A stretch of 64,000 nt of DNA from Spartobacteria bacterium (GTDB lineage Bacteria > Verrucomicrobiota > Verrucomicrobiia > Chthoniobacterales > UBA10450). The position numbers and the translations under genes are program-made. The DNA is taken from assembly GCA_003169975.1 (NCBI GenBank), contig PNAA01000056.1, positions 3,123 to 67,122 of the forward strand, given 5' to 3'. A model generated the notes under the pieces. It was not told the DNA's origin and searched no databases. It saw nothing but the letters and a program-made list of their open reading frames with translations. Shown in pieces: positions 5,677-26,140 of the stretch (positions within the stretch are counted from its first letter, which is position 1; every line of letters starts with the position of its first letter).

Positions 5677-6840
5677 ATGCTGGAAAGACCGCCGCGGCAG
5701 CATCGAACTCCTCCAGCACGGCCATTGCCTCTCGCTCGAGTCACCGACCCCGGCTACAACTGTCTCGTGGAGCGAGAAGTGGAATTGCTGATCGAAGACA
5801 TCGCCTTCGGCGGAAAGGGCGTCGGGCGAGCGGAAGGCAAAGCCGTCTTTGTTCCCTTCACGATCGAGGGCGAGCGGGTCGCGGCGCGCGTCGTGCGAGA
5901 GAAAAAATCGTTCGCGGAAGCGGATCTGGTGACGGTGCTGGAATCCTCGCCGCAGCGCACCACGCCGCAGTGCCCCTATTTCGAGCGATGCGGCGGCTGC
6001 AGTTACCAGCACATGAGTTACGAGCATCAACTGCACTGGAAAGCGCGCCAGGTCCGACAGGCGCTTCAGCGCATCGGAAAATTTCGCGAGCCGCCGGTGC
6101 GCCCGATCGTCCCCTCGCCGCACGACTATGAATATCGCAACCGGATCACGGTGCATGTCGAGAACGGCATCGTCGGATTTTTCCGGCGCGACGGCCATCG
6201 GTTGATCGACATCGAACGCTGCCCGATCGCCGCGCCAGCGGTGAATGACGAACTCACCGCGCTCCGGGCGCGGCGCCCACGCGACGGCCATTACACCTTG
6301 CGCGCGCAGAGCGGCCCGCGCGTCTTCTCCCAGACGAATGACGCGGTCGCCACCCACCTCGCTGACGCGATCGCGGCCCTGGTTCCGCCTAACGAATCGC
6401 TCCTGATCGACGCTTACTGCGGCGCCGGATTTTTCGCGAAACGGCTGAAAGCGAAATTTTCGCGGATCGTCGGGATTGACTGGGACATCCACGCGATCGC
6501 CGCCGCGGAGGCGAACGCGACCGCGGCGGAAACCTATTGCGCCGGGGAGATCGCGACGCATCTCGGAGAGCGACTCGCGGGCGCCAATCTCAAGAGCACG
6601 ACCGTGATCGTTGATCCGCCGGCGACCGGCTTGGGTGCCGATGTGCGCGAGATCCTCCGTCGCTATCCGGCTGCGACGCTTCTTTACGTCTCGTGCAATC
6701 CGCCGACGCTGGCGCGCGACCTGGCCGATCTGGGGGCGGCTTTCACCCTCCAAAGCGTGACGCCCTTCGACATGTTTCCGCAGACCGCCGAGATCGAAGT
6801 TCTCGCCCATCTCACGGGCAGCGAGATCGCAGCTCGTTAA
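5677..6840 (+). CDS. RumA/RlmD-type RNA (uracil-5)-methyltransferase with TRAM domain and Fe-S cluster
   Basis: TRAM-like N-terminus (LIEDIAFGGKGVGR), Cys cluster CPYFERCGGCSYQHM, SAM-MTase motifs (DAYCGAGFF, VDPPATG, YVSCNP). The exact start is uncertain. Confidence 0.85.
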   Translation: MLERPPRQHRTPPARPLPLARVTDPGYNCLVEREVELLIEDIAFGGKGVGRAEGKAVFVPFTIEGERVAARVVREKKSFAEADLVTVLESSPQRTTPQCPYFERCGGCSYQHMSYEHQLHWKARQVRQALQRIGKFREPPVRPIVPSPHDYEYRNRITVHVENGIVGFFRRDGHRLIDIERCPIAAPAVNDELTALRARRPRDGHYTLRAQSGPRVFSQTNDAVATHLADAIAALVPPNESLLIDAYCGAGFFAKRLKAKFSRIVGIDWDIHAIAAAEANATAAETYCAGEIATHLGERLAGANLKSTTVIVDPPATGLGADVREILRRYPAATLLYVSCNPPTLARDLADLGAAFTLQSVTPFDMFPQTAEIEVLAHLTGSEIAAR

Positions 6841-6930
6841 CGAATTCTTAACGTCTGCGGCCATTCCTTTGATTGGCGCGGATGCGAAGTCGAGTTCCCA
6901 AGCGGGAGCGACAAGGGTAAGGTTCGACGG

Positions 6931-8253
6931 ATGCACATCTTGATCGTTGACGACGAAAAGAACATTCGCCGCGCCTTGACAATGGCGCTGGAATCGATGG
7001 AGCATGCCGTGACTTGTGCTTCGAATAGCGCTACGGCGATGGCGGAATTGCGCACCGCTTCGTTCGATGTCGTCCTCCTGGATCTAAAGTTAAGCCAGGA
7101 AAACGGACTCGATGTGCTGGAGGAAATCCTGCGTATCTCGCCGCAGACGGCGGTCGTGATGGTGACGGCCTATGCGTCGATCGAGACGGCGGTGGAGGCG
7201 ATGCGACGCGGCGCATTTGATTACCTGCCGAAACCCTGCACACCGGATCAGGTGCGACAGGTAATCGGGAGGATCGAGAAGACCCGGAAGCTGGAACGAC
7301 GGGTCGTCGAGTTGGAGTCGCGTCTGGGAGCGGACGGACCGGAGAGCGATCTCACGTCACAATCGCCCGCCATGCAGAAGGTGCTCGAGATCGCGTTCAA
7401 AGTGGCAGAGAGCGAAGCGATCGTTCTCCTTCTCGGCGAGAGCGGCACGGGCAAGAGCGTCCTGGCGCGAGCGATGCATCAACGAAGTCCGCGCCGCGGC
7501 GGAGCCTTTGTGACGGTGAGTTGTCCAAGCCTTTCGCGAGAGCTGTTGCAAAGCGATTTGTTCGGCCACGTCAAGGGCGCGTTCACCGGCGCGTATGCCG
7601 ACACCCTGGGCAAGGTCGCGGCGGCGGATGGCGGCACGTTGTTTCTTGACGAAATCGGTGAGTTGCCGCTGGAGATTCAGGCAAAACTGCTGCGGCTCTT
7701 GCAGGAGCGAGAATATGAACGGGTCGGCGAATCGAAGCCGCGCCGAGCCAACGTGCGGGTGATCTCGGCGACGAACCGCGATCTCGCACAGGCAGTCGCG
7801 GATGGCAAGTTTCGCGAAGATCTTTTCTACCGGCTGAATGTCATCTCGCTCCGCCTGCCGCCGCTGCGCGATCGCATGGACGATCTGGAGAAGATTGCGC
7901 GTAGCCATCTGACCTTTCTCGCCGGACACGCGGGCAAGAATGTGCGCGGTTTCTCGCCCGACGCGCTGACCGCGATGCGGCAATACGCGTGGCCGGGCAA
8001 TCTCCGCGAGCTTCATAACGTGATCGAGCGGGCGGTGATTTTGTGCAGCAGCGAAATGATTGAGGCGGACGATCTGTCCGACACGATTCAAACCAGCTCC
8101 GAGTTGCGCCTCGGCGGAAAACTCACCGTGCACGAAATCGAAACGGAGCACATTCGGCGGGTGGTAGCGAGCACGCGCAACCTGGATGAAGCAGCGACGA
8201 TTCTCGGCATTGATCCGGCAACGCTCTACCGCAAACGCAAGAAGCTCTTCTAA
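6931..8253 (+). CDS. sigma-54-dependent response regulator (REC + AAA+ + Fis-type HTH; NtrC family)
   Basis: MHILIVDDE...DVVLLDLKL receiver, GESGTGKS Walker A, GAFTGA loop, and a C-terminal HTH ([19 protein letters not shown]). Confidence 0.9.
7841..8253 (+). repeat. direct repeat copy A (3' end of the sigma-54 activator gene); partner at 10503-10912
   Basis: Aligned by eye to 10503-10912: about 96% identity, with a perfectly identical core at 7930-8075 = 10592-10737. Confidence 0.9.
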
Positions 8254-8261
8254 GCCGCAGA

Positions 8262-8480
8262 TTACAGAGTTCGCCACCACCGATGCGTGGCGACTGCGGC
8301 CCAAACCACCTCAATAATCCCGAATGGCCAGGCGCCTTGCAAAAATCCGTACGTCGAACCCAAAACGCATGCGAGAGCGAAGCCTAGAATAAACCAACGG
8401 CTTCGCTCTTCTAACGCGTAGCAGATCATCATGCTCGTGACGGCCGCGAGTCCAAATAGTGTTAGCGCGTCAACTTTCAT
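8262..8480 (-). CDS. small two-TM membrane protein (hypothetical)
   Basis: 72-aa ORF with two hydrophobic helices (LFGLAAVTSMMICYAL, WFILGFALACVLGSTYGFL) and a WPFGIIEVVW tail. Confidence 0.5.
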   Translation of the reverse strand: MKVDALTLFGLAAVTSMMICYALEERSRWFILGFALACVLGSTYGFLQGAWPFGIIEVVWAAVATHRWWRTL

Positions 8481-8603
8481 CGGCTACGGGATGATTAGAA
8501 GATTGCTCCTCTCTTCCAAAATTCCAAACTCTGTCACGACCGGCGCGATGATCAGCTTGATTTATGACTCAGGATCTCTGACCGTCTCGCAAGAGTTTCC
8601 AGC

Positions 8604-10295
8604 ATGAGTGTCGACGCTTTTCAGGCTGGCATTTTTCTGCTGGTCGTCGCTGCGCTGGTCAAGCCGGTCGGCGCGTATCTGGAACGGGTTTTCCAGCGGC
8701 AAAAAACATGGCTCGACCCGCTGCTTGTGCCAGTGGAGCGCCTCATTCACCGGATTCTGGGCATCGACGCGCGAGGTGAAATGGATTGGAAACGTTACTC
8801 GCTGGCCTTTGTGATTTTCAGTGTTGTCAATGTTGTCGCGCTCTATTTCCTGCTGCGCTGGCAGGCATGGTTGCCTTGGTATTTTCCGAAGGTAATGACC
8901 ACGCCAATGGCTCCGGATCTGGCGGCGAACACGGCTGTCAGTTTCGTGACCACAACCACGTGGCAGGCCTACGCCGGCGAGAACACGTTGAGCTACTTCA
9001 GTCAGATATTGCTCGCCGGGCAGAACTTTGTCGCCGGCGCGGCAGGACTTGCCGTGGGCATTGCTTTTATTCGCGGTTACGTGCACGAGAAGACGGAGAA
9101 CCTGGGTAACTTCTGGGTTGATCTCATTCGCGCGCTCTTATGGGTGCTCGTGCCGCTCTCGGTCGTTGGGAGCATCTTCCTGGTCTGGCAAGGTGTGCCG
9201 ATGAATTTCCTGCCATACGCTGTCGCGCACACCATCGAGGGCGGGACTCAGACCATCGCTCGCGGGCCTGTCGCCGCGCTGGAGTTTATCAAGAATCTCG
9301 GCACCAACGGCGGCGGCTTTTTCAATGTCAATGGCGCGCATCCTTTCGAAAATCCGACGCCGCTGACGAACTTTGTCGAACTGCTCGCCATTGTGGTGCT
9401 GCCCGCCGCTTTTACGCACACCTTCGGCCGAATGGTGGGCAAACCGCGTGACGGCTGGGTGATCTTTTGGACGATGACCGCGCTCTTTATCGCGGGCTTA
9501 GTTGTGTGCGAATGGGCGGAAGGAAGCATGCACCCTGCGCTGGCACACGAGATCGCCGGCGGCAACATGGAAGGCAAAGAGGTGCGCTTTGGCGTCGGCG
9601 GTTCGGCCCTCGCGGCGGTCGTGACTTCCAATGGCGCGACTGGCTCCTACAACTCAATGCACGACAGCTTCGAGCCGCTCGGGGTCGCCGTGCCGCTGGT
9701 TAATATGTTGCTCGGCGAGATTGTCTACGGTGGCTTGGGCACGGGGCTTTACAGCATGATCTTCGTTGCCTTGCTGGCGCTGTTCGTCGGCGGATTAATG
9801 GTCGGCCGCAGCCCCGAACATCTTGGCCGGCGGCTCGGACCGCCCGAGATGAAAATCATCGCACTTTATACGCTTCTCGGACCGGTCACTGTGCTCGTGA
9901 TGACGGCTGTTGCTGTCGTGACGGACGCCGGTCGCGTGGGACTGACGACCAACGTCGGGTCGCATGGATTCACCGAAATTCTTTTCGCCTACGCGAGCGC
10001 TTTCGCAAACAATGGCCAGAGCATGGCGGGCCTCAGCGCCAACAATATTTTTTACAACACAACGACGATCATCGCCATGCTGGCCGGCCGCTTTGGTCTG
10101 GCGGTGTTGGCTCTGGCCCTGGCGGGCCGCTTCGCCGCTGCGCGCCGACGACCTGCCGGCGCTGGCACGATGCGTTCGGACGGAGTGCTATTCGGCATGC
10201 TGCTTGCGGGAACAGCGATCTTTGTGGGTGCGCTGAATTTCCTGCCTGCGCTCGCGCTCGGACCGATCCTCGAGCATTTTTCAATGCGTCCATAA
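8604..10295 (+). CDS. kdpA: potassium-transporting ATPase subunit KdpA, orphan copy (no kdpB/kdpC follows)
   Basis: 563 aa, full-length KdpA-like (NTAVSFVTTTTWQAYAGE, LGTNGGGFFNVNGAHPFENPTP, TSNGATGSYNSMHDSF). By eye it is substantially diverged from the second kdpA at 15924. Confidence 0.9.
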   Translation: MSVDAFQAGIFLLVVAALVKPVGAYLERVFQRQKTWLDPLLVPVERLIHRILGIDARGEMDWKRYSLAFVIFSVVNVVALYFLLRWQAWLPWYFPKVMTTPMAPDLAANTAVSFVTTTTWQAYAGENTLSYFSQILLAGQNFVAGAAGLAVGIAFIRGYVHEKTENLGNFWVDLIRALLWVLVPLSVVGSIFLVWQGVPMNFLPYAVAHTIEGGTQTIARGPVAALEFIKNLGTNGGGFFNVNGAHPFENPTPLTNFVELLAIVVLPAAFTHTFGRMVGKPRDGWVIFWTMTALFIAGLVVCEWAEGSMHPALAHEIAGGNMEGKEVRFGVGGSALAAVVTSNGATGSYNSMHDSFEPLGVAVPLVNMLLGEIVYGGLGTGLYSMIFVALLALFVGGLMVGRSPEHLGRRLGPPEMKIIALYTLLGPVTVLVMTAVAVVTDAGRVGLTTNVGSHGFTEILFAYASAFANNGQSMAGLSANNIFYNTTTIIAMLAGRFGLAVLALALAGRFAAARRRPAGAGTMRSDGVLFGMLLAGTAIFVGALNFLPALALGPILEHFSMRP

Positions 10296-10391
10296 CCTGG
10301 TTCCCGCGTTGAAACGCACTATCGCAATGGTCAGAGGAGTAGGTATCGCCGTGTCATTATCCCGGGATAGTGACTGGAACAGCCGGAAGCG

Positions 10392-10912
10392 AAAAAACTC
10401 CCTTGGACCGCGGCGCCGGCGGACACACGACAGGCACGATCAACCCCGGCGTGATCTGGGCGGGCCACCTCTTTCAGTTTGTAGTGGAGGCGGTCGTTCC
10501 GATCATCTCGCTCCGCTTGCCGCCGCTGCGCGAGCGCAGGGACGATCTGGAGAAGATTGCGCTCAGCCATCTGACCTTTCTCGCAGGACATGCGGGCAAG
10601 AATGTGCGCGGTTTCTCGCCCGACGCGCTGACCGCGATGCGGCAATACGCGTGGCCGGGCAATCTCCGCGAGCTTCATAACGTGATCGAGCGGGCGGTGA
10701 TTTTGTGCAGCAGCGAAATGATTGAGGCGGACGATCTATCCGACACGATTCAAACCAGCTCCGAGTTGCGCCTCGGTGGAAAACTCACCGTGCACGAAAT
10801 CGAGCCGGAGCACATTCGGCGGGTGATAGCGAGCACGCACACCCTGGATGAAGCAGCGACGATTCTCGGCATTGACCCAGCAACGCTCTACCGCAAACGC
10901 AAGAAACTCTAG
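10392..10912 (+). pseudogene. mosaic pseudogene: internal fragment of an OM-channel paralog (like 43932-44894) fused to the 5'-truncated 3' end of the sigma-54 activator
   Basis: The track ORF 10370-10912 reads ...TPLDRGAGGHTTGTINPGVIWAGHLFQFVVEAVVPI | [19 protein letters not shown].... The first part matches PLDRGAAGQTTGTINPGVIWAGHYCQFGVEAIVPI of the 43932-44894 protein. The second part matches the C-terminus of the 6931-8253 protein. The junction lies at TCA (10503-10505). Confidence 0.75.
10503..10912 (+). repeat. direct repeat copy B (5'-truncated duplicate of the sigma-54 activator 3' end)
   Basis: See copy A. Homology ends at the stop codon (aagaagctcttctaa versus aagaaactctag). Confidence 0.9.
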
Positions 10913-10968
10913 GCCGGGGTGGCCCGCGTTTTCGCGTCGGGCAAAATGCAATCCGCAGGATGTTCTAA

Positions 10969-10985
10969 TCGTGCATGATGCACGA
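10969..10985. promoter_or_regulatory. 17-bp perfect palindrome TCGTGCAT-G-ATGCACGA, candidate activator (UAS) site
   Basis: 8-bp arms around a single central base, centred about 85 bp upstream of the TGGCAC element at 11062. That is the typical distance for an enhancer-binding-protein site. Confidence 0.35.
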
Positions 10986-11061
10986 CGCACATTGGGCCAA
11001 TGAAGTGACAGAAAACTGTAAATAGCTCTTTTGCAGAATGTAACGCGTTTAGAGAAAGGCA

Positions 11062-11077
11062 TGGCACGCCATCCGCT
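11062..11077 (+). promoter_or_regulatory. candidate sigma-54 (-24/-12) promoter TGGCAC-GCCAT-CCGCT
   Basis: Perfect -24 TGGCAC and correct GG-N10-GC spacing. The -12 element is CCGCT rather than TTGCW. It lies about 165 nt upstream of the kinase start at 11243 and downstream of a sigma-54 activator gene. Confidence 0.4.
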
Positions 11078-11242
11078 AGGGAGGCGAGCATGAAGATGCT
11101 TCGCCAGTTGCCGCAACGGGCCTTCGGTGCCGACGCGAGTCGGAGGCGCGCCGGTTATGGAACCTCAAGTCTGCCGAAAGGCACGGTCGCCATCTAATCT
11201 GGTGGCTCGCCACGCAAAGGCGCATCGGGCACGCTGGGTAGC

Positions 11243-13051
11243 ATGAAACGACGCATCTTTTTCGGTCTCGCACCGCTCTTCATTCTGCTCATCGCAATGG
11301 GTCTTTACGCCGTCACGCTTTTCACGAATCTGGGCAACCGCGTCGATGTCATCCTCCGCGAAAACTTCCGCAGCGTTCTGGCCGGCCAGCAAATGAAAGA
11401 AACCGCTGAACGTATGGATTCGGCCCTCTTCTTCTCGCTCGTGGGCGAGGAAGAGCGAGGGCACAAATTGTATGCGCAAAACCTGCCCGCATTTCGCGAT
11501 AGCGTGCGCATCGAACTCGGCAACATCACTCTGCCGGGTGAAGCAGAACTCGCCGCGAAGGTGAAACAGTTGCACGAGAAATACGCCGCTCGGGCGGAGG
11601 CCTTCTGGGCGACGCCCGACATCGGGCAGCGACGGAAGATGTATTTCGGCGAGATGCTGCCGGCCTTCACGGAAATCAAAGACACCGCGCAGGAAATCAT
11701 CCGCATCAATCAGGACAACATGGTGCAAGCGGACCGAGAGGCCCGCCAACTCGCGGCGGAATCGACGCGCTACATGATCTTCGCGATCGTCGCCGGGATC
11801 GGGGGCGCCATCTTTTTTGCCGTGCGGCTTCAGCGTTCGATCTTGCGTCCGATCCGTCGCCTCACGACCGTCTCAAAGGAACTTGGCGAGGGTAAGCTTG
11901 ACCAGGTCGTACCGGTCACGTCCCAGGACGAACTCGGCCAACTCGCCGACACCTTTAACAAGATGGCGACGAAGTTGCGCGCTTATCGCCAGGTGATGGG
12001 CGACCAGATTCTGCAGGCGCGACAGATGACCGAGATCACTTTTTCGGCGTTCCCCGATCCAATCATCGCGCTTACTTCCGATGGGCGGATCGATTTTACC
12101 AATCCGGCGGCGACCAAGTTTCTCTATCATTGCGGGCAGGCGGATTCCCTCCCCGCCAGCGTGCAGGCGGAGGTCGATCGTGTCTTCAAAGGCGCGCCCG
12201 ATTTTCTGCCGACGAGTTTTGAGAGAGTGATCGTTTTTCGCGTGGATGGGCACGAGGTCTTCATGCTCCCGCGCGTGATCGGGATGCGCGATGAATCGGG
12301 CAACATCTTCGGCGCCGCCGTGATACTCCAGGATGTGACCCGTCTGCGCCTGCTCGATGAGGTGAAGACGAATCTCGTCTCGACAGTCAGTCACGAGTTG
12401 AAGACGCCGCTGACCAGTGTGCGCATGGGCTTGCACCTTCTTCTCGAAGAACGCATCGGCCCTCTCAACGACAAGCAAACGGAATTGCTCCTCGCGGCTC
12501 GCGAAGATTCCGAGCGCCTGCTGCGCATGATCAATGACTTGCTCGATCTGGCGAAGCTCGAGTCAGGCAAGGCCGTGCTGCCGAGCGAGGTAATCGAGCC
12601 ACGGGAGTTAGTCGAAAGCGCGGGCGAAGATTTACGCGGGCTCGTCGAGTCACGCGGCTCGCGGCTCGTGACGAAAACCGAGCCGGGATTGGCGAGTGTC
12701 TTCGTCGATGCGCAACAGATTTCGCACGTTTTTTCGAATTTTGTCTCCAATGCGGTCAAGCACACGAAAGCCGGCGAAGAGATTGTGCTCGGGGCAAGGA
12801 AGCATAACGACACTATCCGCTTTTCCGTGATCGATCACGGCTCCGGGATTGTCCCAAAATATCGCGCGCGCATCTTCGACCGCTTCTTCCGCGTGCCTGG
12901 CTCGGAAGTGACAGGCGCGGGTCTCGGCCTGGCAATTGCCAGGGAAATAGTCCTGGCGCAGGGCGGGACCATCGGCGTCAACAGCAACCCCGGGCAAGGC
13001 AGCGAATTCTATTTCGATCTGCCGCCCGCTCGCAACGGCGCAACCTCATGA
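11243..13051 (+). CDS. sensor histidine kinase (2 TM, periplasmic sensor, HAMP, PAS, HisKA, HATPase_c)
   Basis: HAMP (DELGQLADTFNKMA), PAS (FPDPIIALTSDGRIDFTNPAA), H-box SHELKTPLTSV, G-boxes (DHGSGI, GAGLGLAI). Confidence 0.85.
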   Translation: MKRRIFFGLAPLFILLIAMGLYAVTLFTNLGNRVDVILRENFRSVLAGQQMKETAERMDSALFFSLVGEEERGHKLYAQNLPAFRDSVRIELGNITLPGEAELAAKVKQLHEKYAARAEAFWATPDIGQRRKMYFGEMLPAFTEIKDTAQEIIRINQDNMVQADREARQLAAESTRYMIFAIVAGIGGAIFFAVRLQRSILRPIRRLTTVSKELGEGKLDQVVPVTSQDELGQLADTFNKMATKLRAYRQVMGDQILQARQMTEITFSAFPDPIIALTSDGRIDFTNPAATKFLYHCGQADSLPASVQAEVDRVFKGAPDFLPTSFERVIVFRVDGHEVFMLPRVIGMRDESGNIFGAAVILQDVTRLRLLDEVKTNLVSTVSHELKTPLTSVRMGLHLLLEERIGPLNDKQTELLLAAREDSERLLRMINDLLDLAKLESGKAVLPSEVIEPRELVESAGEDLRGLVESRGSRLVTKTEPGLASVFVDAQQISHVFSNFVSNAVKHTKAGEEIVLGARKHNDTIRFSVIDHGSGIVPKYRARIFDRFFRVPGSEVTGAGLGLAIAREIVLAQGGTIGVNSNPGQGSEFYFDLPPARNGATS

Positions 13052-13740: not shown

Positions 13741-13741
13741 A

Positions 13742-15719: not shown

Positions 15720-15730
15720 CCTAACGACTT

Positions 15731-15814
15731 ATGATTGACCTGTTTTTTATCGCACTCACCATCGGCTTCTTCGCTTTGATGCTGGTCTTCATCTGGGCCT
15801 GCGAAAAGGTCTAA
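15731..15814 (+). CDS. 27-aa hydrophobic peptide (MIDLFFIALTIGFFALMLVFIWACEKV), possible KdpF-like paralog
   Basis: Not in the ORF track (too short). Single TM helix, same length and same ..EK(V/F) ending as the adjacent KdpF. It fills the porin-kdpF gap exactly. Confidence 0.4.
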   Translation: MIDLFFIALTIGFFALMLVFIWACEKV

Positions 15815-15827
15815 CCACTACAATCCA

Positions 15828-15911
15828 ATGGAAAACACTATCGTCGGAATCATTGCTTTTGCATTGATCGTCTATCTCATCTTCACGATCGTCCGCCCGG
15901 AGAAATTCTAA
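15828..15911 (+). CDS. kdpF: K+-transporting ATPase subunit F
   Basis: MENTIVGIIAFALIVYLIFTIVRPEKF: a single TM helix and the ...Y(L/A)...RPEKF ending characteristic of KdpF, 12 nt upstream of kdpA. Confidence 0.7.
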   Translation: MENTIVGIIAFALIVYLIFTIVRPEKF

Positions 15912-15923
15912 CTACCACTACTC

Positions 15924-17747: not shown

Positions 17748-17786
17748 CTCTCAATCCTCAACTAACAATCTCTCAACTTTTCTAAT

Positions 17787-19811
17787 ATGGCTGCTAAAAC
17801 TCATTCCATTTTCGATCCGGCGATCATCATCCCGGCGATCGGTGCATCGTTCCAGAAGCTCAACCCTGCCCACATGCTCGGGAATCCGGTCATGTTCGTC
17901 ACGGAAGTCGGCGCTCTGATTACGACCGCGCTTCTCTTCAGCGGCGGACAGGGCGCGTCCTTTGGTTTCCTGCTCCAGATTACCCTCTGGCTCTGGTTCA
18001 CGGTGATCTTCGCGAACTTCGCGGAAGCGATGGCGGAAGGTCGCGGCAAAGCCCAAGCCGAGACATTGCGCAAATCGAGAACCGAAACGAAGGCCAATCG
18101 TTTCCGGGGCGATGGCGCGCTCGAGGAAGTTCCCTCAAACAAGCTCAGGAAAGGCGATGTCGTCATCGTGAAAGCCGGCGAATTCATCCCCGGCGACGGC
18201 GAGATTATCGAAGGCGCCGCGACCGTGGACGAGTCAGCCATCACCGGCGAATCAGCCCCCGTTGTGCGCGAAGCTGGCGGCGACCGCAGCGCTGTCACCG
18301 GCGGCACCCGCGTGCTTTCAGACGTGATCAAAGTCCGCATTACCGCGAATCCCGGCGAGACCTTCCTCGATCGCATGATCGGGCTTGTCGAAGGCGCGAA
18401 ACGTCAGAAGACCCCCAATGAAATCGCGCTCACCATCCTGCTCTCCGCGCTCACGATCATCTTCCTCATCGTGCTCATTTCGATGAAAGCGTTCGGCATT
18501 TACAACGGGGTCGATTTCTCGATCACGGTGCTCGTCGCATTGCTCGTCTGCCTCATTCCCACGACGATCGGCGGATTGCTCAGCGCCATCGGAATCGCGG
18601 GGATCGATCGTCTCGTGCAGAAAAATGTGCTCGCCATGAGTGGGCGCGCGGTTGAAGCCGCCGGCGACGTGGATGTGTTGTTGCTGGACAAGACCGGCAC
18701 GATCACGCTTGGCAATCGGCAGGCTGCGGAATTCCTGCCCGCCCCTGGTGTGACGAAAGAGGCCATGGCGGAAGCTGCGCAACTTGCTTCCCTGGCCGAC
18801 GAAACTCCGGAAGGCCGGAGTATTGTGGTTTTGGCCAAGGAAAAATACGGATTGCGCGGACGCGAGCTCAACGAGCTGCCGCACGCCACCTTCGTCCCGT
18901 TCACTGCCCAAACCCGAATGAGCGGCGTGGACATTAACGGGACCAAGTATCGCAAAGGCGCGGCCGACCAGGTGAAAGCTTTCGTCGGCGGCAACCTGCC
19001 CGGAGCTGTTCAGTCCGATGTCGATAGGATCGCTGGACTCGGTGGAACACCGCTGGTCGTGGCCTCAAACGAGAAAGTGCTCGGCACGATCTACCTCAAG
19101 GACATCGTGAAGGGCGGACTGGCGGATCGTTTCGAGCGCTTCCGCGCCATGGGCATCCGCACCATCATGATTACCGGCGACAATCCGCGCACCGCTGCGG
19201 CCATCGCGAAAGAAGCAGGCGTCGACGACTTCCTCGCCGAAGCAACACCGGAGCAGAAGCTCGCGCTGATTCGCAAAGAGCAGGAGGGCGGTCACCTCGT
19301 CGCCATGACCGGTGACGGCACGAACGACGCGCCCGCGCTGGCCCAGGCCGATGTTGGCGTAGCGATGAACACCGGCACGCAAGCCGCCAAGGAAGCGGGC
19401 AACATGGTCGATCTCGACTCGAACCCGACCAAGCTCATCGAGGTCGTCGAGATCGGGAAACAACTCCTCATCACTCGCGGTGCGCTGACCACGTTCAGTA
19501 TCGCCAACGATGTCGCGAAGTATTTCGCCATCATCCCAGCGATGTTGCTCGTCAGCTTCCCGTCAATCGCGCCGCTCAATGTGATGAAGCTCGCGTCGCC
19601 CCAGAGCGCCATTCTGAGCGCGGTGATCTTCAATGCGATCATCATCATCCTGCTCATCCCGCTCGCCCTGCGCGGTGTGAAATTCCGCCCGCTTGGCGCG
19701 GCCAAAATTCTGCAACGCAATCTTCTCATCTACGGTGTCGGCGGCGTCATCATTCCATTCATTGGCATCAAAGCGATCGACATGATGGTCGCCGCACTTC
19801 ACCTCGCCTAG
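17787..19811 (+). CDS. kdpB: potassium-transporting ATPase subunit KdpB (P-type ATPase)
   Basis: DKTGTIT phosphorylation motif, [22 protein letters not shown]. 674 aa. Confidence 0.95.
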
Positions 19812-19832
19812 TTCCGCAAACCGATTTATCCC

Positions 19833-20426
19833 ATGAATACTATTATTAAAGAAACCACTACCGCGGTGCTCGCGACGCTTCTCTTCGCCCTCGTTCTGTG
19901 CGGCATCTACCCAGTCATCATCTGGGGAGCCGGCCAGTTGCTCTTCCCGCACCAGGCCAATGGCAGCCTGATCGAAGGCAGCGATCGTAAGACTGTCGGT
20001 TCCGAACTGCTCGGCCAGAACTTTACCAGCGCGAAATACTTTCATCCGCGTCCTTCTTCGGCTGGCACTGGTTATGATGCGGCTAACTCCAGCGGCTCCA
20101 ACCTTGGGCCGACTTCGCAGAAACTGATCGACGCGGTGAAACAACGCGTCGCCGATTACCGCGCTGAGAACGGCCTGGCCGCTGATGCACTTGTCCCCGG
20201 CGATGCTGTCACCGCGAGTGGCAGCGGTCTCGATCCGCACATCAGCCCGAAGAACGCGCTCCTGCAAGCCTCCCGAGTTGCGAGAGAGCGCGGCCTCGGC
20301 GTGGACGTTGTGAAAACCGAAATCGACAAAGCCACGACCGCGGCACAGTTCGGCATTCTTGGGGAAGCCGGCGTGAACGTACTTAAACTTAATCTCGCGC
20401 TCGACGCGATGTCTCCCAAAAAATAA
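19833..20426 (+). CDS. kdpC: potassium-transporting ATPase subunit KdpC
   Basis: 197 aa, an N-terminal TM helix, then LFPHQANGSLI and SGSGLDPHISP motifs typical of KdpC. Confidence 0.95.
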   Translation: MNTIIKETTTAVLATLLFALVLCGIYPVIIWGAGQLLFPHQANGSLIEGSDRKTVGSELLGQNFTSAKYFHPRPSSAGTGYDAANSSGSNLGPTSQKLIDAVKQRVADYRAENGLAADALVPGDAVTASGSGLDPHISPKNALLQASRVARERGLGVDVVKTEIDKATTAAQFGILGEAGVNVLKLNLALDAMSPKK

Positions 20427-20435
20427 TCTCTTCAC

Positions 20436-21566
20436 ATGCCCGAGGCCGACTCCGCCCTACGTCCGAGCGCGGATGATTTCCTTGCGATCATCCGCCAGCA
20501 GCAGGTCGGAAAGTTGAAGATCTATCTCGGTCCCTGCCCCGGCGTCGGCAAAACCTATTCGATGTTGAACGAGGGGCGCCGCTTGAAACAGCGCGGCGTC
20601 GACGTCGTCATCGGCTACGTCGAGCCGCACGATCGCCCCGAAACCACCGCGCAAATCGGCGACCTCGAGATCGTGCCGCCGCGGCTCACGACTTATCACG
20701 GGATCACGCTCAACGAGATGGATGTGGACGCCGTTATCAAGCGCAAGCCGACCGTCGCGCTAGTCGATGAACTCGCGCACACGAACGCGCCCGAAAGCAA
20801 AAACCGGAAGCGCTACGAAGACGTGGAAGATTTGCTTCGCGCGGGCATCAACGTCATCAGCACGGTCAACATTCAGCACCTCGAATCGCTCTATAATTTC
20901 GTCGAAGAGTCAACCGGGGTGCGCGTGAAAGAACGAGTGCCCGACGAAGTCCTAACCAAAGCCGACCAGATCGTGAACATCGACTTGCCCGCTGAAGATT
21001 TGCAGGAGCGACTGCAGTCCGGAAAAATTTATCCAAAAGAACGGATCGTAGCCGCGCTCGCGAATTTCTTCACCCAGAAAAACCTCACGCGCCTGCGCGA
21101 GATGACGCTGACCGAAACGGCGAACTTTCTCGACCGCAAACAACGCGACACCGCAGAGAGCGAGCAGAATGTCAGCGCGCTCGGTCAGGTGATGGTCGCG
21201 ATCAGCAGTCAAGGTCCAGATCCCGGACGACTGCTCCGCAAGACCGCGCGCCTGGCTTCACAACTCAACGCGCAATGGTATGCGGTCTATGTGCGCACGC
21301 CTGAGGAATCGGTCGTAAAGATCGACGCCGCCGCTCAGCGCCGTGTCACCGACACGCTCGAAACCGCCCAGAAAATGGGCGGTCTGGTCTTTTCGATGAA
21401 GGGCGAAAATGTCGCGCAGGCTCTGATCTCGTTCGCTCGCGAATACGGTATCACGCACATCGTCGTCGGCCGCCCCGGCGGCAACAAACTAAAGCGGCTT
21501 TTCAGAAAGACGCTGCACGAAAAACTATTGCAGGCGCTGCCAGATGTCGATCTCGTCGTGGTCTGA
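20436..21566 (+). CDS. kdpD: KdpD N-terminal sensor domain + USP domain protein (no TM, HisKA or ATPase domains)
   Basis: GKLKIYLGPCPGVGKTYSML Walker-like motif, VDELAHTNAP and NVISTVNIQHLES (KdpD N-terminal domain), then a USP-like half. The ORF ends at 376 aa. Confidence 0.85.
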   Translation: MPEADSALRPSADDFLAIIRQQQVGKLKIYLGPCPGVGKTYSMLNEGRRLKQRGVDVVIGYVEPHDRPETTAQIGDLEIVPPRLTTYHGITLNEMDVDAVIKRKPTVALVDELAHTNAPESKNRKRYEDVEDLLRAGINVISTVNIQHLESLYNFVEESTGVRVKERVPDEVLTKADQIVNIDLPAEDLQERLQSGKIYPKERIVAALANFFTQKNLTRLREMTLTETANFLDRKQRDTAESEQNVSALGQVMVAISSQGPDPGRLLRKTARLASQLNAQWYAVYVRTPEESVVKIDAAAQRRVTDTLETAQKMGGLVFSMKGENVAQALISFAREYGITHIVVGRPGGNKLKRLFRKTLHEKLLQALPDVDLVVV

Positions 21567-22039
21567 GCGGCGTCGGTGTGTCCTTGCCTTCTTCTGTCCA
21601 CGCGGTTTTCGCGGAAAAGAAGACGACCGCCAGCTCTATCCAGGACCCAAAAGACCCCGCTCATCCGATAAGCGTAACGCTCGATTAATGTGAACTCAAT
21701 TTGTTACGATCGCTAGAGCTCCACGACGCCTGCTCCGCGCACCCGGCCCACTTGGTTAGGCCACGCCCTCCACCGGCCAAAATGCTGCCTAAGGCGTAGA
21801 TAGGACGATCCCGAGACGACCAAGCCGTCACTGATCAATACCGAATAGGGCATCGGTTACCGTCTCACCCTGCCAGAAGAGCCATTGCGCAACCACGCGG
21901 CGTTGGGTAGTGTCATAATTTCAATTTAGATGCCCAAGTCTGGTTGTTCCACTCGCGGACGTCTTATCTGCGAGCTTGTCCACCAACTTGTTTCCATCCA
22001 ACTCAAGCAAGCCTAGACGCTTCGGGCTTTTCTTGCCGT

Positions 22040-22221
22040 CGTCGAGCGTCCAAAATTCGCCAACGCCTGAGCGCCCGGTCCAAGGCCGCTGCCGCCTTGC
22101 ACTACGGCTACTACAATTTGTCAAAACGACCGCTGCGGTGCGCTGCACGCCCGCAAGGGCCGCTGGTGTGACGCAAACGTTCTGGACAGTCCGGGATCTC
22201 GTAGAGATGATTGAAGCGTGA
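22040..22221 (+). pseudogene. frameshifted C-terminal remnant of an IS1/IS1595-type transposase
   Basis: Two adjacent frames read ...ASKIRQRLSARSKAAAALHYGYYNLSK and FVKTTAAVRCTPARAAGVTQTFWTVRDLVEMIEA*. From memory this matches the ...AFSKK.EN....ALH..YYNF.R.H.TL..TPAMAAGVTDH.W...EL tail of these transposases. Confidence 0.45.
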
Positions 22222-22505
22222 GCGAACGCACCAACAAACTCCAAGGAGCCGTCGAAACGATGCACCGCTGCAAGGCAACTTACGTCGGCCCAGAGCTTGT
22301 GATCGAATTGTTTTGCGGTCAAATCGCGTGGGACGGAGTCGTCCAGATTTTCGATCTCGCCGGGCATCCGAAAGCGAAACGCTGCCATGCATGGTCGTAT
22401 CTTGAAAACCACAAACCGCAATGCACGACCGTCTTAGAGATTCCACCGGTGGATTCAGCGGAGACAACCGTCAAAGAGGCGGTTGCAGCCAAAGCGAGGT
22501 CGTAA
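22218..22505 (+). CDS. conserved hypothetical protein (95 aa)
   Basis: Resembles a small protein family I recall from many bacteria (...HRCKA.YV........G...W.G.V..FDL.GHPKAKRCYAWS...VLE.PPV.SA..AV). No function is known. Confidence 0.55.
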   Translation: MSERTNKLQGAVETMHRCKATYVGPELVIELFCGQIAWDGVVQIFDLAGHPKAKRCHAWSYLENHKPQCTTVLEIPPVDSAETTVKEAVAAKARS

Positions 22506-22509
22506 GAGC

Positions 22510-22860
22510 ATGAACATTTTGCGGCATATACCCGTTTGGGCCTTTCTCTTGATTGCTACCACGTTGGAAGTCAGCGGGGATGCGGTTGTCAGAATAGCGA
22601 TTTACAATCAAGCCGGGATTGCGCGAATCGGCCTCACGCTCGCCGGTGCAACACTCCTCTTAGGCTACGGATTCGCTCTCAACCTGGCCCCCGTTGAGTT
22701 TGGACGAGTAGTTGGTCTTTACATCGCCACGCTATTTGTTGTCTGGCAGATCATCAATTTTATCGCCTTCCGAGCATTACCGAATGTTCCAATCCTGATT
22801 GGAGGCAGTCTTATCGTCGCGGGCGGCCTGATCATCACGTTCTGGAAAGCAGCGAACTGA
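22510..22860 (+). CDS. small 4-TM membrane protein (YnfA/SMR-like)
   Basis: MNILRHIPVWAFLLIATTLEVSGDAVV..., about 116 aa with four hydrophobic helices. I prefer the ATG at 22510 over the track start at 22483. Local GC is lower than the surroundings. Confidence 0.55.
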   Translation: MNILRHIPVWAFLLIATTLEVSGDAVVRIAIYNQAGIARIGLTLAGATLLLGYGFALNLAPVEFGRVVGLYIATLFVVWQIINFIAFRALPNVPILIGGSLIVAGGLIITFWKAAN

Positions 22861-22861
22861 C

Positions 22862-23252
22862 ATGATGAATAAGTTCTTCGCGGCATTCTTTGCCTTCGGC
22901 GCAACGATGTGCACTCTCACCATAATCTTACTTCTTTTTCCGGGAACCGCGCTAGACTTGCTTTGGCGTCTCAATCCCGACGCTCATTCAGCCTTTTCAA
23001 TCTCTCGGAAAAGTGTCGGTATTGCTCATGTTTGTCGTCGGAGCAGGGTGCGCACTAGCTGCGACAGGCATGTGGCGAGGCTCTCGCTGGGGCATGCGCC
23101 TCGCTTTGGCAATCTTATCGGTCAATATCCTGGGTGACCTTTTTAATGCTTTGATGCGTCACGATTTGCGCACGTTGATCGGGCTACCGATTGGCGGCGC
23201 GATGATCGCTTATCTAATCTGCAGCAGAAAAAAGCCTGCTATTTCAAATTAG
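22862..23252 (+). pseudogene. membrane protein gene split by a +1 frameshift in a T4 run (22994-22997)
   Basis: Track ORFs 22862-23137 and 23013-23252 are two halves of one gene. Deleting one T gives ...NPDAHSAF-QSLGKVSVLLMFVVGAGCALAATGMW... as one continuous hydrophobic protein. Confidence 0.65.
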
Positions 23253-23319
23253 GACACTACCCGCCATTGTGCTCGCTTGACTTCCCGTTTCGCCAATCAG
23301 AGCATGACTCTGGTTCTTT

Positions 23320-23460
23320 ATTCAGCTTAATGGTCCCGCGAGTGCCGGACCAACGGGGGATCCAACTTCCTTCCGCGCAAGCGGGCGGATCGGGGCGAAC
23401 GATGTGCGACATCGAGGGCATTTAATGGCTCCAGCCCGACAGCTAACCTCGCCAGCTTCA
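23320..23460 (+). promoter_or_regulatory. probable cyclic-di-AMP riboswitch (ydaO/kimA class) in the leader of the permease gene
   Basis: From memory of the ydaO-yuaA consensus: ACGGGGGATCCA (23353-23364), GGATCGGGGCGAAC (about 23387-23400), GAGGGCA (23414-23420), and the near-invariant 3' block CCCGACAGCTAACCTCG (23435-23451). It ends 6 nt before the ATG at 23466. Confidence 0.7.
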
Positions 23461-23465
23461 TTAAA

Positions 23466-25337
23466 ATGCAGGAAAGGTTTCGTCGCGCGGGACCGCTTGG
23501 TTTCTTTCGAAGTTTTTTGATACCGACCAACGTTAAGCGACCGCGCAATGTGGATGTGCCACGCGCAGCCGCCATCCTCTACGGCGACTGGGGCACGAGC
23601 AAAGCGTACGTTATCGGCCTCGCTTTTGCCGTCGGCGGCTATGCCTCATTCTGGCTTATCGCTGCGATGTGCGTTCTCACCGCGCTCGTCGGGATCAACT
23701 ATATCATCATCTGCCGGCTCTATCCGGATGGCGGCGGCGTTTATGCCAGCGTCCGGCATCGCTCCGAGGTCATTTCCATCGTCGGCGCGTTTCTCCTCAT
23801 CGCCGATTACCTCGTCACGGCAGCGATCAGCGCACTGTCCGCGTTTCAATACCTGGGCGTCCCGCACCCGGAAAAGTTCGCGGCGGCGGCCATCCTCGTC
23901 ATCGGCCTGCTTAACTTGCTCGGACCGAAACACACCGGCGGTCTCGCCTTCCTCATCTCGGTTCCAACCGCGCTCGTCGTCATTACCCTTGGCCTGTTCA
24001 GCCTCCCCCATCTCGGCGTCGCCCTTGGACATCTGCAACCATTGCACGGGAGCTTTTGGCAAAACTGGAGCGGCTTCGTTGGAATCGTCCTCGCACTCTC
24101 GGGCGTCGAGGCAATCGCCAACGCCACCGGCGTCATGCGACTCAATCCCGGCAGCACTGAGGCCAATCCCTCGGTGACCAGGACATCCACGCCCGCTCTC
24201 CTCTGGGTGATGGTCGAGGTCTGTATCTTCACCGCGTTGCTCGGGCTCGCGATGAACGCACTCGGTGGTTTGCAGGTCGTGCACGGCGACGTGAACGCGC
24301 CGGGCGCGCAAGGCGTCCGCGACTACATGCTGCGCTACATGGGAGAAACATTTGTCGGCGGCGCACTCGGACCCGCCATCGGGCACGCCTTCGGTTTTGC
24401 GGTCAGCATCACCTTCGGCTTTCTTCTGCTTTCCGCCGTCAACACCGCGATCGTCGATCTCATCACGATCCAATTCCTGATGGCGCGCGACCGTGAGATG
24501 CCGTCGATCTTTCAACGGCTCAACCGCTGGGGCGTGCCCAGCTTCGGCCTGTTTCTCGCCACCGTCGTCCCGATCGCGCTCGTCCTTCTCGTCAAAGACA
24601 TGGTCGGTCTCGCCGATTTATATGCGGTGGGCGTGGTGGGCGCAATCGCGACCAATCTCGGCGCCACCGCCACGGACCGCCATTTACGGATCAAGACTTG
24701 GGAACGGACCTTGATGTTCGGAACGTTCGTCGTCATGGCCGCGATTGAAATGTCGCTCCTCATCGATAAGCCGAACGCCCGCTATTTTGCGGTCACGGTC
24801 CTGGCGGCAGGACTCATTTTGCGCGGGCTCGTGCAGGAGCGCCGGATAAAAAAAGAAGCCGCCGTCGCTCCGGAGGCTTTGCCGGTACCGCGGGCCGCGC
24901 CGGAAGCTTCCGCGGCGGCGACGGAGATGCTCGGAGGCGAAGCGATGCTTTGCGCCATCCGCGGCACTGGACGCACGCTCGATTTCGCCCTGCGCGAAGC
25001 GCGCGAGACCGGCCGCCGGCTTTACCTCCTCTTCGTCCGCGAACAGCGTTTCATGACGGAGCAGGACGCGAAACGCAAATGGCAGGCAGATCCCGAAGCG
25101 CGGGAAATATTCGAGAATGCCCGGGCGCGCTCGCCGGATCAACCGCCGCTATTCTGCTACGCGGTGAGCGACTCGGCCTCCCAGACGATCGTCGATATCG
25201 CAGCGACGATCGGCGCGTCACGCCTCATCCTCGGCGCCCCGCGCCGTCACGCGATGGTCAACATCCTCCGTGGCAACCTCGTCCGTGAAGTATCCGATAT
25301 GCTGCCGGACGAAATCGACCTGCTGGTTTACGCCTAA
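23466..25337 (+). CDS. APC-superfamily permease with C-terminal USP-like domain; candidate K+ transporter (KimA/Kup-like motifs)
   Basis: 623 aa, about 12 TM helices. Motifs YGDWGTSKAYV (compare Kup GDIGTSPLY), YPDGGGVY and LSGVEAIANATGV (compare KimA, from memory). The cytoplasmic tail is USP-like (LYLLFVRE..., GASRLILGAPRR). Confidence 0.8.
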   Translation: MQERFRRAGPLGFFRSFLIPTNVKRPRNVDVPRAAAILYGDWGTSKAYVIGLAFAVGGYASFWLIAAMCVLTALVGINYIIICRLYPDGGGVYASVRHRSEVISIVGAFLLIADYLVTAAISALSAFQYLGVPHPEKFAAAAILVIGLLNLLGPKHTGGLAFLISVPTALVVITLGLFSLPHLGVALGHLQPLHGSFWQNWSGFVGIVLALSGVEAIANATGVMRLNPGSTEANPSVTRTSTPALLWVMVEVCIFTALLGLAMNALGGLQVVHGDVNAPGAQGVRDYMLRYMGETFVGGALGPAIGHAFGFAVSITFGFLLLSAVNTAIVDLITIQFLMARDREMPSIFQRLNRWGVPSFGLFLATVVPIALVLLVKDMVGLADLYAVGVVGAIATNLGATATDRHLRIKTWERTLMFGTFVVMAAIEMSLLIDKPNARYFAVTVLAAGLILRGLVQERRIKKEAAVAPEALPVPRAAPEASAAATEMLGGEAMLCAIRGTGRTLDFALREARETGRRLYLLFVREQRFMTEQDAKRKWQADPEAREIFENARARSPDQPPLFCYAVSDSASQTIVDIAATIGASRLILGAPRRHAMVNILRGNLVREVSDMLPDEIDLLVYA

Positions 25338-25465
25338 GTGCACCCCATCGGGCCTGTGAAAAAGATCGATGACTGCACCGCAGAGGTCTTGCGGTGCGCA
25401 CCGGGATGGATCGAAAAATATTCTTCAGGCTTGGCGAACGCGCTCCGGGTTGACAAGTTCGCGCC

Positions 25466-26140
25466 ATGAAAAAGCGGATCGCTCTCCTGGCGGTGTTGAT
25501 GCTCTGGCGCTCGACGGCATATCCCACCACCAAAGGCTTGAGCCAGATCGTGACGCCGGACTTGCAAGCACCAGGCGATCTTTCGCTCAGTTTCCAGGCG
25601 CAGAGCGAACGCATCGCCAACCCCTACGAGCTGCAAGCGGAAATGGGCCTGACGAACTGGGCCGAGTTTGCCGTCTTTCAAGGATTCAAGCCTAACGAAC
25701 AAATCTTCGGCACGGAGTTTGGTTTGCTGACGAAGGAGCCCTACCTGCTTTCCATCGGATTCATCAACTGGTCTCCGCACAGTCACGTCGACCCGCAACC
25801 CTACCTCGAGGCCGGTTATTACACCGAGCATCAAAAGTTCATCGTCGGCGCCATTCACGCCGGCTACAAAAACGAAGCGATCCTCGGCTATGCTTACGAT
25901 TTCAACAAAACCTGGCGCGCGCAGGTTGACTTCCAAAGCGGCGCCGAAAATTCAACGACTTTCGGTTTCACCTGGAATATCACGGACGATTTTCAAATGA
26001 ACCCGGCCGTTTACATCAACAATGGTCCCGGACATGACATCTTCGGCTATGTCGTGTTCACCTATACCTTTCATCTCTGGGGCAAGCGCGAAAGTGACTC
26101 GGGCGCGCCGGCCGGAGCCATCAGCCCGGCTGGAAAGTAG
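25466..26140 (+). CDS. small outer-membrane beta-barrel protein (hypothetical)
   Basis: Signal peptide MKKRIALLAVLMLW, alternating aromatic/polar beta-strand pattern (YVVFTYTFHLW). Confidence 0.55.
   Translation: MKKRIALLAVLMLWRSTAYPTTKGLSQIVTPDLQAPGDLSLSFQAQSERIANPYELQAEMGLTNWAEFAVFQGFKPNEQIFGTEFGLLTKEPYLLSIGFINWSPHSHVDPQPYLEAGYYTEHQKFIVGAIHAGYKNEAILGYAYDFNKTWRAQVDFQSGAENSTTFGFTWNITDDFQMNPAVYINNGPGHDIFGYVVFTYTFHLWGKRESDSGAPAGAISPAGK

Follow-up and report, generated by a model that had tools for sequence, protein, structure and literature searches.

What does it mean when a short DNA word, repeated about once per kilobase along a contig, is missing from one continuous stretch of 19 kb? The question is raised by a 64,000-nucleotide piece of contig PNAA01000056.1 of a Spartobacteria bacterium (assembly GCA_003169975.1), here called the window, in which the word GCCTAACG (reverse complement CGTTAGGC) is abundant on both sides of a gap, the desert, that contains the genes of potassium homeostasis, among them those of the KdpFABC P-type ATPase. 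A previous sequence-only reading of the window had proposed that the whole block came from a genome lacking the word and has not yet become word-bearing. The comparison with about 170 loci from related genomes, indicated in the following by L-numbers (L005 and so on), leads us to a modified answer, to which we assign a probability of roughly 70%: positions 6887–23270 are imported DNA, namely a Chthoniobacter-like potassium module that entered a host of the lineage defined below as clade A and was later remodelled. For this interval the earlier proposal agrees with an empty site in a related genome, with the patchy distribution of the module, with its phylogenetic tree and with the lack of the word in Chthoniobacter; it does not hold for the permease gene at the right end of the gap, nor for a single arrival.

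An abundant word and its 19-kb gap

By exact scan, GCCTAACG/CGTTAGGC occurs 41 times in the window, 20 times on the forward and 21 on the reverse strand, against 1.2 copies on average, and never more than 6, in dinucleotide-preserving shuffles. The following base is A in 35 of the 41 copies, so that the full motif is the 9-mer GCCTAACGA; beyond this A no conservation of the flanks was found among the 41 copies. The density of about 1/kb, the presence on both strands and the large excess over chance are those of words of the DNA uptake sequence (DUS) or uptake signal sequence (USS) type. According to our own gene calls, 34 copies lie within genes and 7 at or between gene ends. The genic copies occupy all four stop-free frames and both orientations; the peptides that they encode are xLT, PN(D/E), (S/T/P)LG and VR, with CTA, TTA and AGG as rare codons. 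Because of this indifference to orientation and frame and of the use of rare codons, the word is a feature of the DNA and not a protein motif.

No copy is present between 6394 and 25690, as had been noticed by the sequence-only reading, and all 41 lie elsewhere. The gap measures 19,303 nt and the next largest one 3,779 nt. At the density observed outside the gap (0.92/kb), 17.7 copies would be expected in it, and the Poisson probability of finding none is 2e-8; a maximum gap of this size among 41 uniformly placed points has a probability of 1.5e-5. As a control for the coding sequence, we counted every position at which the word fits a gene synonymously. Outside the gap the word is carried by 34 of 90 such compatible sites, inside by 0 of 34, with 12.8 expected (P = 1e-7); protein constraint is no explanation for the gap. 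Nor is the desert made of degraded words, a possibility that was ruled out: one-mismatch variants are at background level in the gap (13 against 12.6 expected) as well as in the rest of the window (31 and 31.7, respectively), and decayed copies of the word are therefore absent; the clustering of such variants near the right edge, to which attention had been drawn, is not meaningful.

Host lineage and age of the word positions

The host is an uncultured member of the Chthoniobacterales (Verrucomicrobiota). The rumA-like gene that precedes the desert has orthologs of 59–91% identity in metagenome-assembled genomes (MAGs) of this order, and no other relatives appear among its best 80 loci, on which the rumA comparison was made. 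Clade A, as defined by the rumA tree and by word counts, has rumA genes at least 73% identical, a G+C content of about 0.60–0.63 and 0.4–1.9 words/kb; clade B, which is Udaeobacter-like, has a G+C content of about 0.55 and 0–0.3 words/kb.

The positions of the word are old and strongly maintained. The copies at 3367, 4234 and 4258 are exact in 10–12 of 15–16 clade A relatives, in DNA that is ~75–80% identical around them, and about 54 of 92 comparisons of orthologous word positions are exact overall. Few copies are young. One of these is the last word before the desert, at 6387 within the rumA-like gene, which is found only in the window's subclade and is common to L005, L006, L007 and L028.

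A clean natural test of maintenance is offered by a site within the desert. The KdpB motif QKTPNEIAL is written ACG CCT AAC GAA, that is with the word, in ~38 of 48 kdpB orthologs across the order, and the word is kept there also by Udaeobacter-like genomes of low word density, while synonymous sites vary freely on both sides; therefore, it is the word itself that is maintained. In the window, which reads ACC CCC AAT GAA (18414–18425, forward strand), this ancestral word has been lost. The synonymous differences from the word are three in the window, two in L085 and in Chthoniobacter, one in L168, L167 and L171, and none in L172. As L172 has the word and others are one change off, an argument based on shared derived codons at TPNE is weaker than we first thought. 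The word is thus kept at orthologous positions and depleted in DNA that appears to be acquired, again in the manner of DUS/USS-type words.

Other words were seen to recur in this material. In L036, L048, L053, L066 and L067 AAGATCGACA(A) is abundant, with 16–25 copies per 13–21 kb, and GCCTAACGA is missing except in L048, which has both. The word CGATCGCG, containing the palindrome CGATCG, is present in 34 copies in the window, which is G+C-rich, and in 36 in the 21-kb locus L027, as raw counts. Furthermore, at the rumA stop codon of the window (6834–6850) there is a perfect 10-nt palindrome, TCGTTAACGA, that shares TAACGA with the word and is followed by TCTTAACG, and the 3' flank of rumA in L010 shows an exact word and then a T-run.

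The slot downstream of rumA

The earlier reading had suggested to check whether rumA is elsewhere directly followed by the outer-membrane gene found at 25466. An empty site does exist: in L016, rumA (window position 6834) is fused straight to window position 23274, and is hence directly followed by the riboswitch and the permease gene that close the desert. In L028 the permease lies between rumA and the 25466 gene, after which the 39898 gene is found. The module is absent after rumA in L006, L007, L009, L022 and L028, and in the first four of them rumA is followed by genes that match window 47954–57776. The nearest relatives, L005 and L168, do possess the module, and it is therefore not strain-specific.

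The loci that possess the module are arranged in different ways. In L005, the closest relative by rumA (91%), there are downstream of this gene a sigma-54 regulator of 96% identity, a kinase of 95% and a receiver-TPR protein of 94%, without the first kdpA gene and with no word across the regulator part downstream of rumA. L010 and L023 have the module inverted and directly adjoining rumA (kdpB 82% identical), and in their sisters L013 and L014 the rumA slot is occupied by another kdp operon (kdpA 51%) with 6 words in 4.5 kb; in L085, L167, L171 and L172 the module is found in other contexts. Clade B generally shows the order rumA–kdpABC–porin, and its kdpA and kdpB have about 70% identity to the window. 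Three kdp versions, those of the window, of L013/L014 and of the Udaeobacter types, have been found in this slot, which is empty elsewhere; the kdp locus beside rumA is ancestral, and its content has been swapped repeatedly.

One of these loci deserves a separate remark: in the long-read contig of L167 (1–11131) kdpA is split into 145 aa and 251 aa, the kinase has 381 aa and kdpC 83 aa, which could reflect either real decay of the module or frameshift errors of the long reads.

Relationship of the module to Chthoniobacter

A global search with the short N-terminal KdpD protein of the module (kdpD-N) retrieved the window's group with 97–90% identity, followed by Chthoniobacter sp. with 83–89% and C. 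flavus Ellin428 with 87%; the clade A loci L010 and L023 reach only 74–75%. Among the kdpD-N matches, Chthoniobacter-labelled proteins rank 23rd to 86th, and none was found among the top 120 GlmS matches (down to 81% identity) or among the best 80 rumA loci, a distribution that would place Chthoniobacter outside clade A.

The module, without the porin, is present in three Chthoniobacter loci, L165 (C. flavus), L169 and L173 (both from Chthoniobacter sp. MAGs). Taking L169 and the clade A loci L010/L023/L115 (L010 group) for comparison, the identities to the window are 86% and 64%, respectively, for the sigma-54 regulator, 83% and 66% for the kinase, 83% and 80–83% for kdpA, 92% and 82% for kdpB, 82% and 64–72% for kdpC, and 89% and 75% for kdpD-N. 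In neighbour-joining (NJ) trees, the window's group and L169 are united with 100% bootstrap both for kdpA+kdpB and for kinase+kdpD-N, and a union of the window's group with the L010 group receives 0% in both. C. flavus and L173 join the L010 group with 89% bootstrap for kdpA+kdpB, and the topology obtained with kinase+kdpD-N is (C. flavus, (L169, window group)). In the rumA tree, instead, the window and L010/L023 are in one clade. The phylogeny of the module is incongruent with that of the host, with Chthoniobacter placed outside clade A indirectly, and the kdp phylogeny recommended as a check turned out in favour of the import, as the window's module goes with L169 and stands apart from the closer host relatives L010 and L023.

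The word counts go in the same direction. The three Chthoniobacter loci, with a G+C content of 0.60–0.63, are free of the word over 63 kb, of which 31 kb belong to the module and 32 kb to its flanks. Across the window's group (seven genomes), 7 words were counted in 65.2 kb of module sequence (0.11/kb) and 63 in the other 102.6 kb (0.61/kb; P = 7e-8). Moreover, C. flavus and L173 share the genes at the right flank of the module, and thus the context is stable in the genus Chthoniobacter, while in clade A it varies.

Mosaic structure of the desert

The desert is a mosaic, and not a block that arrived as one, as had been proposed. Its core is the potassium-homeostasis module (6887–21566, forward strand), 14.7 kb with 0 words, whose limits are given by DNA homology with L085, extending from 6887 to exactly the kdpD-N stop codon at 21566; with relatives it is shared at 88–97% protein identity. 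Inside the module, the segment 8267–10407 (2.1 kb, forward strand), which contains a second kdpA gene, has 91.7% DNA identity to L115 (995–3132), whereas the neighbouring genes have only 65–70%. The segment is bracketed by a 408-nt direct repeat of 95.8% identity, with the left copy at 7841–8248, corresponding to the 3' end of the sigma-54 regulator gene, and the right one at 10503–10910 (both on the forward strand), and is absent from L005 and L085; for these reasons it is a recent import from the module of another lineage. The repeat gives substance to the recombination scar previously noticed at 7841–10912. A second recent addition to the older module is the 1.7-kb segment 21567–23270, with a GC content of ~0.556. 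Window 21584–23267 is skipped, except for 63 nt, in L168, the closest relative that has the region (92–94% DNA identity, GlmS 97%). No DNA homolog of 21567–23270 was found in ~160 loci (L005–L164); L172 has a homolog of 22483–22860 (89%) after kdpD-N.

The desert had been considered foreign up to 25.4 kb, a limit that has to be moved to the left: the right-hand 2.4 kb, with the riboswitch and the permease, are a native neighbour of rumA across the order. At the outside rate about 2.2 words would be expected in them, and their absence is not significant (P(0) about 0.1). The permease gene has 7 compatible sites, none of which is used, and is word-poor in most relatives too.

Within the module, the porin gene has relationships of its own. 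The porin is 85–89% identical to those of Udaeobacter-like contigs and 88–90% to those of L085 and L167, but only 71% to those of L168 and L172, whose other module genes are 81–97% identical to the window, and this suggests that the gene was exchanged separately; its NJ tree did not resolve, as the module types are scattered among Udaeobacter-like porins, and was not used. The only near-word in the gap, ACCTAACGA at 15719, overlaps the porin stop codon, a place that reads TAGCCTAACGA in clade B (Udaeobacter-like contigs), TGACCTAACGA in the window and TAACCTAACGA in L085.

That a rearrangement by itself does not deprive DNA of the word is evident from 26110–39914, 13.8 kb that are extra in comparison with L168 and contain 10 words, which is a normal density. 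This stretch is absent at that position in L168, L172 and L028, in all of which the 39898 gene comes next after the 25466 gene; the stretch encodes an ArsP permease, DUF1980, an amidase, an SPFH protein, a P-type ATPase and others. Judging from its normal word density it looks like translocated native DNA, and the patch of gene fragments previously described at 26141–26800 is at its left junction. The second-largest word gap (38306–42085) covers the gene of a TonB-dependent receptor (39898–42021, reverse strand) in a stretch of lower GC content (0.55–0.57). This gene is word-free also in L168, L172 and L028, where it is directly beside the permease and outer-membrane protein region; an ancestral desert may have extended over this gene.

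Genes and elements of the region

On the left side, the native flank is the rumA-like RNA methyltransferase gene (5677–6840, forward strand), with TRAM and U5-methyltransferase domains. The genes named in this section between 5677 and 26140 lie on the forward strand unless otherwise stated, and the assignments are by Pfam. The module begins with a sigma-54-dependent response regulator with receiver, AAA+ and Fis-type HTH domains (6931–8253); its counterparts in L005 and L085 are 96% and 94% identical, and those in Chthoniobacter sp. L169, C. flavus and L115 86%, 82% and 64%, respectively. Next comes the imported kdpA gene, kdpA-1 (8604–10295; KdpA, E = 1.5e-206), and then a duplicated C-terminal fragment of the sigma-54 regulator (10370–10912), which has only AAA_lid_14 and HTH_8 and includes the right copy of the repeat. 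A HAMP-PAS histidine kinase (11243–13051) has counterparts of 95% identity in L005 and 90% in L085; the values for L169 and C. flavus are 83% and 76%, and L010 and L023 reach 66%. The kinase gene is followed by two tandem receiver-TPR response regulators (13048–13740 and 13703–14518), of which L085 has one copy only, and by the BBP2/OmpL-like porin (14484–15719; E = 1e-78).

The KdpFABC operon is complete and in order, with kdpF recognised by position and size only. This probable kdpF (15828–15911) encodes 27 aa, MENTIVGIIAFALIVYLIFTIVRPEKF, and in C. flavus a gene assigned to KdpF by Pfam stands in the place matching it. The operon continues with kdpA-2 (15924–17747; KdpA, E = 2e-229), kdpB (17787–19811; E1-E2 ATPase plus HAD) and kdpC (19833–20426; KdpC, E = 1e-68). 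The last gene of the module encodes a short KdpD of 376 aa (20436–21566), with the KdpD N-terminal sensor and Usp domains and without kinase domains. The classical control by full-length KdpD and OmpR-type KdpE is hence not found; in their place are the sigma-54 activator, the HAMP-PAS kinase and the receiver-TPR proteins. The two kdpA genes, kdpB, kdpC, the short KdpD, the sigma-54 regulator and the kinase agree with the earlier statement that the desert holds the kdp genes and their regulators.

In the 1.7-kb segment the open reading frames (ORFs) of small membrane proteins, for which no strand is assigned, gave weak Pfam matches only; they include a YnfA-like ORF (22483–22860) and a split DUF2127-like ORF (22862–23252). 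The frameshift suggested for the latter is plausible, its C-terminal part (23013–23252) matching DUF2127 with E = 9e-5. Instead, an insertion sequence (IS) remnant reported at 22040–22221 was not confirmed, as it has no Pfam match and no homolog in the ~170 related loci.

The permease at the right end had been read as riboswitch-controlled, and a c-di-AMP riboswitch is in fact placed directly before it (23314–23473; Rfam RF00379, 54 bits against a gathering score of 38) and is kept ahead of the permease in many relatives. The permease gene (23466–25337), the native right flank, encodes 623 aa with a C-terminal Usp domain; we infer that the protein is KimA-like. It adjoins rumA in many relatives, directly in L016, and a paralog of it at 47954 matches AA_permease_2. 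This second Usp-tailed permease of APC type (47954–49849) is 41% identical to the first; it is 74–76% identical to Udaeobacter-like copies, 88% to that of L171 and only 62–63% to the copy at the same position in L006/L007/L009/L022, and may represent a further exchange of a transporter gene. The word that closes the desert, at 25690, lies in the gene of a small outer-membrane-like protein without a Pfam family (25466–26140), with orthologs of 85–97% in L028, L168 and L172. Finally, the left end of the window (284–1789) encodes a 501-aa protein with an ice-binding-like domain (PF11999, E = 4.5e-57).

Proposed history and alternative explanations

Genomes of clade A carry GCCTAACGA at ~1/kb, and 6887–23270 would have spent too short a time in the genome to receive it; an alternative cause would be that this DNA does not belong to the core that recombines and in which the word is maintained and propagated. 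We suggest that a Chthoniobacter-like potassium module was placed at the old kdp site, with rumA on one side and the native riboswitch–permease on the other, and that it was already there in the ancestor of the window, L005, L168, L167, L085, L171 and L172. Since then it would have gained almost no words, about 0.1/kb, and be almost word-free because the word positions are ancient and gains rare. Later, a second kdpA would have come from an L115-like lineage, leaving the 408-bp duplication, and the 1.7-kb low-GC segment would have been added at the right end of the module. The direction of the transfer was probably from a Chthoniobacter-like lineage to clade A, and our best guess for the upkeep of the word is a biased recombination of the uptake-sequence type.

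Several observations weigh against this history. The kdp genes adjoin rumA order-wide and, therefore, the kdp locus is ancestral at that place, so that the event looks like a replacement or insertion at an old kdp slot and not like an entry into naive DNA. In fact, our first view was that the module is simply native, and it was dropped after the kdpD-N search and the inspection of the Chthoniobacter contexts. The porin is absent from the Chthoniobacter modules and shared with the L010 group and clade B, which implies a mosaic module or a transfer in pieces. The placement of Chthoniobacter outside clade A is indirect, and the direction of transfer is not fixed by the topology of the trees alone. 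Moreover, the module is word-poor also in the L010 group (4 words in 31.5 kb, 0.13/kb, against 14 in 13.5 kb of the rest, P = 4e-5), which fits either a second transfer, in line with the 89% grouping with C. flavus and L173, or a cause intrinsic to the module; and in L172 the module has three words, including that of TPNE, with a flank density that is no higher.

Composition gives no help to the import either. With the word masked, the tetranucleotide usage of the desert is matched or exceeded in deviation by 10 of 90 equal-sized segments, and the GC3 of the block, 0.73–0.75, is host-like (0.67–0.80 outside); a mild deviation at 12–19 kb (z about 2) is matched elsewhere in the window, and the GC profile shows no clear sign of an island. 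The tetranucleotide and codon comparison that had been advised does not, therefore, mark the block as foreign, and the base composition and codon usage that would be atypical in a genomic island are here ordinary, as the abundant word alone differs. A donor of equal G+C (0.60–0.63) would account for this lack of signal. The low GC3 of the porin was discarded as a donor signature, being low in every lineage. Signatures of mobility are missing from the borders: no tRNA was found at the desert, no integrase, transposase or IS by Pfam at 21.5–23.5 kb and 25.4–27.2 kb, and no terminal repeats of more than 9 nt at the block borders.

The word-poor module in both clade A groups raises the question of whether the module, instead of being imported, is an old cassette of the flexible genome of clade A, beyond the reach of the process that spreads the word, for example biased homologous recombination among conspecifics, with Chthoniobacter as the recipient. 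The adjacency of rumA and kdp across the order would be expected from such a cassette, as would the host-like composition and the porin-bearing architecture, common to both clade A groups and not to Chthoniobacter, and in Neisseria uptake sequences are scarce in diversifying regions too (PMC2397512). We consider it unlikely, as it fits the shape of the tree less well than import from a Chthoniobacter-like donor: the kinase+kdpD-N topology nests the window group inside Chthoniobacter diversity, and the surroundings of the module, constant in Chthoniobacter, differ among the loci of clade A. In addition, the TPNE word is lost, with drifting codons, in the window group and kept in ~38 genomes, including the modules of L023 and L115, and the alternative kdp operon of L013/L014 has a normal word density at the same variable site.

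This last operon, with its 6 words in the kdpABC genes, also argues against a gap produced by chance or by coding constraint, that is by membrane and regulator proteins that offer few sites for the word. The genes of the module do encode constrained membrane proteins, and the permease, with its unused compatible sites, is word-poor in most relatives; even so, the two probabilities given above for the gap, the unoccupied 34 compatible sites inside it and the invariant TPNE of KdpB, which holds the word in most genomes and not in the window, make this explanation very improbable, and we reject it. The same applies to an assembly chimera joined at about 6.9 kb and about 23–25 kb, which might come to mind as the window derives from a metagenome contig of ~68.7 kb, and which we hold to be scarcely credible: an identical KdpB protein is encoded on 14 contigs (ENA, JGI, Logan), the three long enough match the gene order of the window, the left junction from rumA to the sigma-54 regulator recurs in the MAG contig L005 of another species, and the right junction (kdpD-N, permease, outer-membrane protein) recurs in L168 at 92–94% DNA identity. 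The import of a Chthoniobacter-like module into clade A, with later remodelling, remains our preferred explanation.

If it is correct, an abundant word marks here imported DNA that base composition misses, donor and recipient being equal in G+C, with Chthoniobacter as a plausible donor genus. A time scale is given too, with word positions that predate the radiation at the genus level and slow gains. In addition, potassium-uptake cassettes are seen to be swapped repeatedly at one slot in abundant, mostly uncultured soil bacteria.

Comparison with known systems

The HIP1 word of cyanobacteria (GCGATCGC) is reported to be depleted in foreign DNA, and resembles the word described here in being a hyper-abundant octamer, largely coding, written with rare codon combinations and conserved at orthologous positions. 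It differs in being a palindrome linked to a methyltransferase, whereas GCCTAACGA is asymmetric.

As regards the genes, the locus is similar to known cases of in situ displacement of operons by xenologs and to the horizontal transfer of kdpFABC, which is frequent, with one slot that holds three kdp versions and a module tree incongruent with that of the host. Differently from these, the transferred unit includes the sigma-54 regulator, the HAMP-PAS kinase, the receiver-TPR proteins, the short KdpD-N/Usp protein, the porin and a second kdpA.

The closest likeness is with the DUS of Neisseriaceae and the USS of Pasteurellaceae, which are also short non-palindromic words, present at ~1/kb on both strands, mostly genic and at positions conserved well beyond the neutral rate. 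Genomes with DUS and USS carry many near-variants, while one-mismatch variants of GCCTAACGA are not enriched, and the inverted-pair terminator arrangement was not seen for GCCTAACGA; moreover, the host is here an uncultured soil verrucomicrobium, and the likeness is one of sequence alone. That an island is flagged by a word desert would be, by analogy, an application of a principle already known from Neisseria, where the DUS is missing from acquired DNA and its deserts flag islands (Treangen et al.). There, uptake sequences are under-represented both in diversifying regions and in acquired genes (PMC2397512), and their atypical distribution has been used to locate integrative and conjugative elements (ICEs; Hughes-Games et al. 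2020, PMC7371117); unlike the latter, the kdp island has no conjugation or integration genes.

The literature search for GCCTAACGA gave only primers and unrelated matches, and that on uptake sequences in Verrucomicrobia nothing relevant, so that the word appears to be undescribed. Just as the DUS has dialects, other lineages of the Chthoniobacterales have a different abundant word. On this analogy, we tentatively put forward the possibility that GCCTAACGA is an uptake-sequence-like word of self-recognition, with AAGATCGACA as its dialect elsewhere, kept at old positions by biased recombination. Word deserts would in that case be a map of foreign DNA independent of composition, valid in these uncultured genomes even for donor and recipient of equal G+C, and the kdp island would serve as its first worked case, in which a donor genus is identified. 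In any case, the Verrucomicrobiota have in it a word of DUS-like density, the function of which is testable.

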